A stretch of DNA of 38,231 nt from Candidatus Thorarchaeota archaeon (GCA_038893995.1 JAWAQK010000020.1:1-38231); one strand, 5' to 3'. Positions 36,989 to 38,231 are shown, counted from the stretch's first letter. A program made the numbers and translations. The notes: generated by a model not told the origin, from the sequence alone.

Positions 36989-37254
36989 CCATCGCGGTCA
37001 GCACCGAATCAACGTTCGGACAAATTGCTAGTCGGTCAACTCCACGACCAGTCTCCTGAGACACGGCCGCCAGCAGATGGTCGAGCCGGTCACCCGGCGA
37101 TGGACCCACGGACTCCTGTGGTCCGTGGCGGACATAAAGGCAGATCCAATCAGACGTACTGATGCGGTCATTCGTAGGAAACGACAGGTCTGATACCATG
37201 GTCGATCTGGCCGTACATTCAGTGGACTGGTGAGGACATGTATCTCAAGACATG

Positions 37255-37836
37255 TCACACTCTCCGTGCTGCACGAGTGATAGACACGCTGTTGATCAGC
37301 TCCCTGTCTATCTCGTGACGCTCATCGCACACCTCTATTAGCTCGTCATGAGCCTTCGTCTTGCTCTGTCCCTGGTAGTCACAGTTCTTGTAGTATAGGA
37401 CTGTCACGACTCCTTCATGCTTGGCCGCCTCAACCGCGGGGACGAGGTCGCTGTCTCCTGATACCAGGATGACAGCATCAACCCACTTAGCACAGCTCAT
37501 CCGGACCAGATCGACTGATATGAGCACGTCAACTCGCTTCTGTTCGTACTCACCAGTCGACGGATTGCGTGCCAGCTTCCCCAGCCGCACCTCGAAACGA
37601 TCAAGTCTCTTCAGGGTGTGAATGAACCTGTCGTGATCGCCGAACCTCCGACTCTGCTCATCCGTAGGCGGATCGTCACGGTAAGGCATGCAGTCGTAGA
37701 AATAGGTCCTGAATCGTTCCCATCCCGAGCAGAGTCTGTCCGACAATAGTCCGTAGTCGATCCGCGGTTCACCAAAACAGTATTTCAGGACCTTCGAGAA
37801 GTAGCCATTGTCTATCAGTACCGCTGCCTTCCCCAC
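37255..37836 (-). CDS. NYN-domain (PIN-like, LabA/DUF88) ribonuclease
   Basis: 'AVLIDNGY', 'QKRVDVLISVDL', 'ILVSGDSDLVPAVEAAKHEG' and 'ELIEVCD'. GTG start at 37836. Confidence 0.9.
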   Translation of the reverse strand: MGKAAVLIDNGYFSKVLKYCFGEPRIDYGLLSDRLCSGWERFRTYFYDCMPYRDDPPTDEQSRRFGDHDRFIHTLKRLDRFEVRLGKLARNPSTGEYEQKRVDVLISVDLVRMSCAKWVDAVILVSGDSDLVPAVEAAKHEGVVTVLYYKNCDYQGQSKTKAHDELIEVCDERHEIDRELINSVSITRAARRV

Positions 37837-37951
37837 AATAGACCCACGACACCATATTTGACCACCGTCCCCCATTGGAACCCCTGGTCGTGTTCCCTGG
37901 TGAACCAGAGGGACTCCATGGAACGGTGGCGAGAATATTCGTGGTATTGTG
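37834..37951 (-). ncRNA. Long imperfect hairpin in the 5' leader of the NYN gene (candidate structured RNA)
   Basis: Nested complementary blocks: 37834-40/37945-51, 37844-49/37939-44, 37854-58/37934-38, 37862-68/37923-29 and 37884-88/37904-08. Confidence 0.5.
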
Positions 37952-38231
37952 TGCATCGGCCATTCTTAAGCGTATCTGATATTTCGAGTGGGGTAGTTCT
38001 TCGGTCATGAAGTGCTGGACCATGGGGCACGAGGTCTGTCCCGAGGAGGGTCGCTTGACATTGTCACACGTCGGGGAAACGATTCGCAGCCTAGGCCTTC
38101 TCCATTCGGCACAGACGTGTTCGGCCACAACATCCGACTTCGGTGGCAGGAGAGCCCGCTGGCCGAGGCGAGGGCTCTCCCACGAGTCGTCAGACTAATC
38201 CCGGTAGGTTCACGTCCCTCAGGGTCCACAC

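Follow-up and report, generated by a model that had tools for sequence, protein, structure and literature searches.

At the end of a 38,231-bp contig of Candidatus Thorarchaeota archaeon (GCA_038893995.1, JAWAQK010000020.1:1-38231), a gene for a NYN-domain ribonuclease (RNase) is preceded on the minus strand by a hairpin of 118 nt whose outermost helix takes in the start codon of the gene. What is this hairpin for, and how much of it matters? The initial annotation of the locus proposed a candidate RNA antitoxin or an autoregulatory RNase system. The entire contig (C20 of a 2.33-Mb assembly in 82 contigs) was analyzed here and is referred to as the window. Comparison of NYN loci indicates that the window hairpin is an enlarged copy of a short conserved stem-loop that many archaeal phyla, and also a few bacteria, have in front of the NYN gene. 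On balance we lean towards the reading that this stem-loop RNA is the nuclease's own control or partner RNA, the NYN protein recognizing its leader.

Orthologs of the NYN gene were gathered from Asgard relatives, from 80 loci representing one genome per species across prokaryotes, from 40 metagenome loci and from 18 IMG/VR loci. The family-level relatives of the window genome include metagenome-assembled genomes deposited as Thorarchaeota or Promethearchaeota, and locus L008 (relative G004) and L022 (a record deposited as Candidatus Thorarchaeota A361) are the same DNA. Most of the collected loci have a short stem-loop just 5' of NYN, and the stem is shared by ~80 of the orthologs. The archaeal carriers are Thor-, Bathy-, Thaum-, Aenigm- and Micrarchaeota, Methanotrichaceae, Methanomicrobiales, Methanocellaceae and Thermoplasmata, and the bacterial carriers are two bins, Eremiobacterota and Paludibacter. 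The stem consensus is 5'-(G/A)CYRYCGUUC ... loop ... GGAYGRYRG(U)-3' (10 bp), and the CGUUC/GGACG stem sequence is retained together with its wobble in at least eight phyla of two domains. In an alignment of 47 distinct sequences (A2), 97.2% of the cells of the 10-bp helix are paired, falling to 20-62% in slid registers. Five of the 10 pairs change on both sides (GC/AU/UA at columns 17-38, CG/UA at 18-37, UA/CG at 16-39, and also 14-41 and 23-32), and the covariation score is 0.328 compared with 0.200 for shuffled columns. None of 500 column shuffles reaches 0.328, a comparison that overstates the significance because the family sequences are related and not independent.

The wobble pairs tell the two strands apart. 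The second pair from the loop is U·G in 43 of the 47 family members and another pair is G·U in 13 of 47; with 81 wobble cells in the alignment, 97.2% of cells pair when the sense strand is read, compared with 80.4% for the antisense strand. Because the conserved wobbles become mismatches on the opposite strand, the structure appears to act at the RNA level, in the sense orientation. The initial annotation had argued as much from mismatches within the window hairpin, among them the pair 37869/37922, which is U·G only on the sense strand, and the argument is upheld by the family as a whole. Loop length varies from 4 to 50 nt with the stem retained (4-8 nt in most relatives, 12-29 nt in some, 50 nt in the window), a range that speaks against a dimer-binding site in double-stranded DNA. 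A/U-rich single strands lie on either side of the stem, and 17-77 nt separate the end of the hairpin from the start codon in relatives. Sense-strand pairing and loop variation together point to a structure selected in the transcript rather than a double-stranded DNA site.

The window hairpin was compared with this family using a covariance model (R1) built from the same alignment with the window left out. With filters off and both strands of the window searched, the sole match is at 37930-37851 (-) (18.5 bits, E = 0.036), and in the entire genome the sole match is at 37943-37846 (35.5 bits, E = 2.8e-5). The model aligns GCCACCGUUC (37921-37930, minus strand, R1 positions 14-23) as the 5' arm of the family stem and GGACGGUGGU (37861-37870, minus strand) as the 3' arm, around a lineage-specific 50-nt loop insertion (37871-37920, minus strand) that extends the stem. 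The wobble U37922-G37869, whose G lies in the 3' arm, coincides with the conserved U·G of the family. The insertion takes the window outside the usual loop of 4-8 nt, and relatives with 12-29 nt indicate that loop length is not strictly defining. The layout is otherwise that of the family: the stem lies in sense orientation, with a TATA-like box CTTAAGAA (37963-37970, minus strand) 41 nt upstream of it, at a position homologous to the TATA box of relatives, and its end lies 24 nt before the GTG. A 5' AT-rich box AATATT (37934-37939, minus strand), probably at the mRNA 5' end, matches an A/T block of the family at -10 to -6, and a 3' AT-rich box AAATAT (37854-37859, minus strand) just after the stem is aligned by R1 with the family consensus AAAT(A/T)AT.

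The element is confined to the NYN gene. All 62 sense-strand matches in 450 kb of fetched loci lie just 5' of NYN, which bears out the earlier proposal that the structure is functionally tied to this gene; a conserved, covarying hairpin upstream of homologous NYN genes had been set beforehand as the test of that proposal, and was found. In an independent metagenome set the hairpin is present in 28 of 36 loci, directly 5' of NYN in 26 and ~300 nt upstream in two; five of the 28 form perfect palindromes, with a slightly higher score for the opposite strand. (At L145:844-898 and L160:844-898, both from fermentation metagenomes, a GC-rich stretch separates the hairpin from the NYN start ~300 nt downstream.) Five other carrier genomes (two Methanothrix, one each of Thermoplasmata, Aenigmatarchaeota and Bathyarchaeia) have one strong match each, at NYN, and the hairpin sequence is single-copy in the window genome by BLAST as well as by covariance model. 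Neither this genome nor the five others showed a regulon or extra copies, in searches that could miss weak copies, since their first-look filter was limited to 150 scored candidates in each genome. Four IMG/VR contigs (L282-L285), classed there as viral, have both the hairpin and a NYN gene of the same subfamily. When viral contigs were scanned with a 16-base pattern, more than 119 hits came up; the 80 loci returned lack a NYN gene, and the hits were set aside as chance matches. A search of Rfam 15, suggested by the initial annotation, gave no relevant match in the window region at E <= 1, and for ten canonical relatives at the same threshold only tRNA matched and no family for the hairpin.

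The unit has a patchy distribution (12 of 61 Asgard genomes), with 45-58% identity across phyla and domains. No protein gene is conserved as a neighbor of NYN across the loci: the apparently "conserved" neighbors proved to be antisense open reading frames (ORFs) lying within NYN, together with synteny limited to single lineages. In Methanothrix the locus shows synteny and apparently vertical inheritance. Promoter, hairpin and NYN gene form a self-contained unit, present once per genome and without a conserved protein neighbor.

In the window, the NYN gene occupies 37255-37836 on the minus strand (193 aa, from GTG 37836-37834 to TGA 37257-37255), within a longer ORF of 37956-37255 (-). The Pfam NYN match of the long ORF begins at its residue 43 (PF01936, residues 43-215, 48.3 bits against a cut-off of 24.2 in a profile search), is the sole Pfam match of the protein, and confirms the earlier identification as NYN. 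Orthologs (48-60% identity) begin where GTG 37836 stands, several with a stop codon just 5', and most have a GGAGG-type ribosome-binding site. GTG 37836 is therefore the true start, an N-terminal coding extension from ATG 37956, in which the hairpin would be translated, was rejected on the same evidence, and the 40 codons 5' of the GTG are non-coding. Of the acidic active-site residues, D9 and D130 are invariant in 36 NYN sequences, and D103 and D128 show conservation of 90% or more. An AlphaFold 2 model of the protein (mean predicted local distance difference test score, pLDDT, 94.8) has as its nearest folds the LabA-like 2QIP (E = 1.2e-8) and the NYN domain of MARF1; by sequence alone the PDB gave no match. 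The window protein thus belongs to the LabA-like NYN group both by profile hidden Markov model (HMM) and by fold. A 7-bp inverted repeat, GACATGT ... ACATGTC, at 37235-37256 (-) overlaps the NYN stop codon and has no T-run after it. Upstream, the contig ends 275 bp from the hairpin, so that the gene 5' of the NYN unit is not visible, and 37957-38231 holds no convincing ORF.

How much of the 118-nt hairpin is accounted for by the family? Folding of the minus strand of 37815-37960 gives all the nested helices described earlier, including the one with the GTG, as both the minimum free energy (MFE) and the centroid structure. The outermost helix, CACAATA/TATTGTG, pairs 37951-37945 with 37840-37834 and takes in the GTG at 37836-37834; inward from it follow CCACGA/TCGTGG, AUAUU/AAUAU, the GCCACCGUUC/GGACGGUGGU stem and an inner stem. 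The outer 5' arms (CACAATA and CCACGA, 37939-37951, minus strand) are unconserved and probably lie 5' of the transcription start, and the outer 3' arms (TCGTGG and TATTGTG) span 37834-37849 (-). The motif ACCAGGG (CCCTGGT) does occur twice, as the initial annotation had it. The folded segment has an MFE of -58.9 kcal/mol (z = -2.5 for the sense strand, -2.9 for the antisense strand); the fold is better than shuffled sequence, but only modestly so, and its energy picks no strand. The 118-nt hairpin alone has -51.3 kcal/mol, equaled by 0.47% of same-length pieces of the window. The outer flanks contribute -16.5 kcal/mol, whereas flanks after shuffling give -10.0 +/- 3.0 (the observed value is reached in 2.9% of shuffles), and the 50-nt insertion has a fold of its own at -18.2 compared with -13.3 +/- 2.8 (4.4% reach it). 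Among random pairs of window segments, 20% pair as well as the hairpin flanks. All pairs of the outer helices are Watson-Crick and carry no strand information. Tandem Repeats Finder detected no tandem repeats in 37200-38231 at a minimum score of 30. The hairpin is non-random by the conservation of its core in other genomes and not by its energy, and the outer arms and loop insertion are only marginally better than chance and not conserved. By this comparison only the inner 10-bp stem is conserved and under selection, the insertion and outer arms being lineage-specific decoration.

Promoter geometry bears on the same point. When the loci are aligned on the stem's first base, the A/T maximum falls at -46 to -35 (0.72-0.98); 43 of 54 loci have a TATA-like octamer that begins at -44 to -38, and there is a second A/T block at -10 to -6 (A/T fraction 0.80-0.98, 54 loci). 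Archaeal TATA boxes are centered ~26 nt before the transcription start, and from this spacing and the TATA distance the stem would begin ~11 nt after the predicted start. For the window, in which CTTAAG indeed stands just upstream of the hairpin (37970-37965), the transcription start is predicted near G37940. A start there would leave CACAATA (37951-37945) and most of CCACGA untranscribed, so that the GTG could not be sequestered, a caveat the initial annotation had itself raised and which the geometry of the family now matches. An alternative AT-rich AAATAT at 37984-37979 would give a start near 37954 and a fully transcribed hairpin; on positional homology we favor the start near 37940 as roughly twice as probable.

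The best surviving alternative to the reading we prefer, possible if on the unlikely side, is that the full 118-nt hairpin is present in the mRNA, where its outermost helix masks the GUG start and a weak Shine-Dalgarno-like GGUG/GUGGG, making it a translational repressor that is opened or cut by a signal or by NYN itself. Such a role would suit a long fold that is both MFE and centroid structure, flanks more stabilizing than 97% of shuffled flanks, and the alternative start near 37954. Two other Thorarchaeota leaders (L025, L024) also close near the ribosome-binding site or start codon: in G002 (L025), the closest canonical relative, the 5' flank pairs with a GGAGG Shine-Dalgarno sequence (z = -3.05), and the leader of G015 closes at its start codon (z = -5.0), so that a lineage-specific elaboration closing on the start region is possible in Thorarchaeota. 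The outer helices are nevertheless unconserved and silent on strand, their pairing is matched by the random segment pairs noted above, and, going by the positionally homologous TATA box, the outermost arm would not be transcribed. Pairing between the 5' flank and the Shine-Dalgarno or start region was rejected as a conserved family trait (z centered on ~0 over 55 loci, with -0.65 for the window), as was a conserved outer helix joining one AT-rich flank to the other, for which inverted words show no enrichment (4.02 compared with 3.92 +/- 0.12). An upstream ORF starting in the 5' box was also discarded: the box has an ATG in some lineages and none in Methanomicrobiales, and the frame through the stem differs. 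A metagenome scan for close relatives found identities of 61% at most, too distant for covariation of the outer helices and insertion. Sequestration of the start codon in the window, the mechanism put forward by the initial annotation, is thus unsupported.

In the mechanism we favor, the NYN protein would bind the stem-loop of its own leader, and binding or cleavage there would limit the synthesis or activity of a potentially harmful single-strand RNase. The outcome would be negative feedback in cis, possibly with neutralization of the enzyme by the RNA in trans. The local extension of the window hairpin would add translational repression only if transcription began upstream of 37951, which the promoter geometry disfavors. 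That NYN itself reads the stem is suggested by gene and hairpin occurring exclusively together, in two domains as well as on predicted viral contigs, and by clade-specific variation, different NYN clades carrying different hairpin variants. Action on stem-loops in their own mRNAs is familiar from RNase III, RNase E and Regnase-1. A prokaryotic NYN protein has been characterized as a Mn-dependent, sequence-nonspecific endonuclease of single-stranded RNA (PMC11346440), and since the characterized NYN enzymes cut single-stranded RNA without sequence preference, a restraint on the enzyme is plausible. A leader RNA motif that represses and neutralizes a toxin in cis as well as in trans has been described for AbiF (PMC12373285).

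Several points weigh against this mechanism, besides the relatedness of the family sequences already mentioned. Recognition of the stem by NYN is inferred, and another factor could read it instead; the transcription start, and hence the placement of the hairpin within the mRNA, is likewise derived from promoter geometry. Among Asgard relatives the canonical stem was detected only in G000 and G002, and other Thorarchaeota NYN loci have a degenerate, expanded or no copy, a patchy state suggesting that the element is dispensable or fast-evolving in that lineage. (Among 60 Asgard relatives G002 alone has a canonical copy, and genomes without the gene gave no match, under stricter filters.) In addition, many loci repeat the same 6-8-mer on both sides of the stem in direct orientation, the word being lineage-specific: ATAATGG, ATAATGAC, ATAATAGA, TTACAAT or TTTATGTG, as at L037:2427-2478, L038:2422-2473, L064:2432-2483, L069:2439-2492 and L131:1140-1200. 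Over all loci the longest word shared by the two flanks averages 4.88 nt compared with 4.06 +/- 0.13 in permuted data, a value reached in none of 500 permutations; for the Methanothrix-like group alone p is ~0.0125. The window copy has only AATAT common to both flanks. Autoregulation does not explain these direct repeats, which resemble a target-site duplication and could point to a DNA-level history, or would fit mRNA processing in which loss of the box and the hairpin restores an identical 5' end.

A bolder and unlikely alternative is that stem-loop and NYN form an undescribed two-part RNA-nuclease module of Archaea and Bacteria. In such a module the NYN protein would recognize its cognate hairpin and excise it from the leader, the released hairpin would stay bound as inhibitor or specificity subunit, and matching direct-repeat boxes would let the processed mRNA regain the same 5' end. 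If so, the unit would represent a new class of RNA-controlled toxin, defense or self-processing cassette instead of simple feedback.

Quite unlikely, in our judgment, is an RNA antitoxin or partner of the type III kind, in which a separate small RNA in excess would inhibit a candidate toxic NYN RNase in trans as part of a selfish or defense module. The solitary two-part organization, the patchy distribution at 45-58% identity across phyla and domains, and the presence of gene and hairpin on some IMG/VR contigs would all suit such a module, as would bacterial homologs that have a hairpin, then a separate stem-loop with a U-run, then the gene. The AbiF/RCd22 system offers a precedent (PMC12373285), and there are weak, partial PADLOC matches to NYN and HEC-09 models. 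The locus has no tandem repeat array, however, NYN is not a toxin of the ToxN/AbiQ type, the archaeal loci lack a consistent U-tract terminator after the stem, and the Methanothrix locus shows synteny and apparently vertical inheritance. The canonical form of a type III system, as raised by the initial annotation, can thus be set aside for the window, while the looser notion of an RNA partner or inhibitor stays.

An element working at the DNA level is very unlikely. It could be an operator for a transcription factor, placed between TATA box and gene, or else a very small palindromic site of insertion or recombination with the arms as terminal inverted repeats and the flanks as target-site duplication. 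A palindrome adjoining a promoter and the enriched lineage-specific direct repeats of 6-8 nt around the stem would fit either form, as would a second copy at L150, ~600 nt upstream of the first and before a HicB-like ORF. Against both stand the conserved U·G and G·U pairs, which make the half-sites consistently asymmetric and leave only 80% pairing on the other strand, the arm spacing of 4-50 nt, the single copy per genome, and a TATA distance conserved across phyla, which would be unexpected under repeated insertion. A dispersed palindromic repeat (miniature inverted-repeat transposable element, MITE, or repetitive extragenic palindrome, REP, type) was rejected in view of the single copy here and the one strong match in each of five other genomes. 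Integron attC sites have inverted R''/R' cores (RYYYAAC...GTTRRRY) at the stem base and lie 3' of the cassette ORF; the flanks found here are direct and not inverted repeats, the element is 5' of the ORF with a co-conserved TATA box further upstream, and an attC identity was likewise rejected.

Least probable is a stem-loop at the 5' terminus that some host factor, and not NYN, would read, either as an mRNA stabilizer against 5'-3' decay (5' stem-loops stabilize prokaryotic mRNAs) or as the site of a translation regulator: the stem does lie ~10 nt from the predicted 5' end, but CGUUC/GGACG and the wobble are kept over at least eight phyla and two domains, the element occurs only at the NYN gene with one match per genome, and it travels with that gene into predicted viral contigs, so that the factor would need to be universal yet single-target.

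Individual loci show further arrangements. A second Thorarchaeota NYN clade, 34-39% identical to the window protein and with three members among 201 Asgard genomes, has a leader hairpin CUCCCCGG...CCGGGUG between GTTATAC and GTTATAT boxes (L016:2050-2135(-), L020:1345-1485, L021:655-737). In Acidobacteria-type loci L056, L073, L130, L136 and L138 a variant stem, CACUGGCCUCC...GGAGGCCAGU, lies ~130 nt upstream of NYN, and L058 and L094, also of Acidobacteria type, have a CCGUUCUUC-type stem arm instead; in both variants a separate GC-rich hairpin with a U-run (intrinsic terminator) follows, an attenuator-like layout. In Methanoculleus-type L081 (2285-2369), L083 and L095, the promoter-hairpin-NYN unit lies directly 3' of a transfer RNA (tRNA) gene (Rfam tRNA, 57 bits), with ~60 nt to the hairpin. 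L150:524-579 is a second, weaker hairpin ~600 nt upstream of the NYN-proximal copy (also in L151 and L153); it is followed by an ORF of 97 aa (L150:654-947), HicB-like by motifs, and an insertion may have duplicated the leader.

To our knowledge, Archaea have few known RNA elements that are conserved and act in cis. The NYN-leader element is small enough to be studied biochemically, spans at least eight archaeal phyla and extends into Bacteria, is present in cultured methanogen lineages (Methanoculleus, Methanothrix), and is a candidate new Rfam family. In the literature searched we found neither a paper describing the element nor a cognate leader RNA for stand-alone prokaryotic NYN proteins. 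These stand-alone NYN/LabA-like proteins form a very large family listed as of unknown function in a 2017 classification of PIN-like domains (PMC5499597), for which a cognate RNA, found exclusively with one subfamily, would provide a concrete and testable candidate substrate or regulator. For the window, the result separates the selected 10-bp core from the rest of the 118-nt hairpin.

Among known systems, type III toxin-antitoxins (ToxIN, CptIN, TenpIN) likewise have an RNA immediately 5' of an endoribonuclease gene in a small, horizontally mobile unit. The NYN locus differs from them in having a single short stem-loop without tandem repeats, no ToxN/AbiQ, CptN or TenpN toxin and, in the archaeal loci, no terminator between RNA and gene.

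RNases acting on their own transcripts include RNase III at the E. coli rnc leader, RNase E at the hairpin hp2 of the rne 5' untranslated region (UTR), and Regnase-1 (ZC3H12A), which has a PIN/NYN-like catalytic domain, at a stem-loop in its own 3' UTR. In each a nuclease gene has a conserved UTR stem-loop, which here would be a possible target of feedback. There is no sequence or family kinship between these RNAs and the NYN leader, and their regulation is proven by experiment, whereas the protein-RNA link proposed here is drawn from exclusive co-occurrence.

The LabA-like NYN proteins (NYN.COG1432; 2QIP; the MARF1 NYN domain; the CRISPR-associated NYN of B. fragilis) include the window protein by HMM and fold, and their characterized members cut single-stranded RNA (PMC11346440). 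The non-coding RNAs associated with PhoH2 (PIN-PhoH) are lineage-specific structured RNAs found comparatively 5' or 3' of the gene for a PIN-like nuclease (bioRxiv 10.64898/2026.10.21.760802); they differ in protein family and in the RNAs themselves, and NYN is not mentioned in that report.

The best working analogy is AbiF/RCd22 of the Clostridioides difficile phi027 prophage (abiF motif, RF03085; PMC12373285). Its protein is Abi_2/HEPN-like and not NYN, and it has two abiF motifs, in contrast to the one stem-loop found here; the NYN system is mainly archaeal and known from sequence alone, and neither RF03085 nor another Rfam 15 family matched the window region or the ten canonical relatives at E <= 1. 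Common to the two is a conserved structured RNA that lies in the leader of a solitary gene whose protein targets RNA and is potentially toxic, and in AbiF/RCd22 this RNA both lowers expression in cis and neutralizes the protein by direct binding (PMC12373285).

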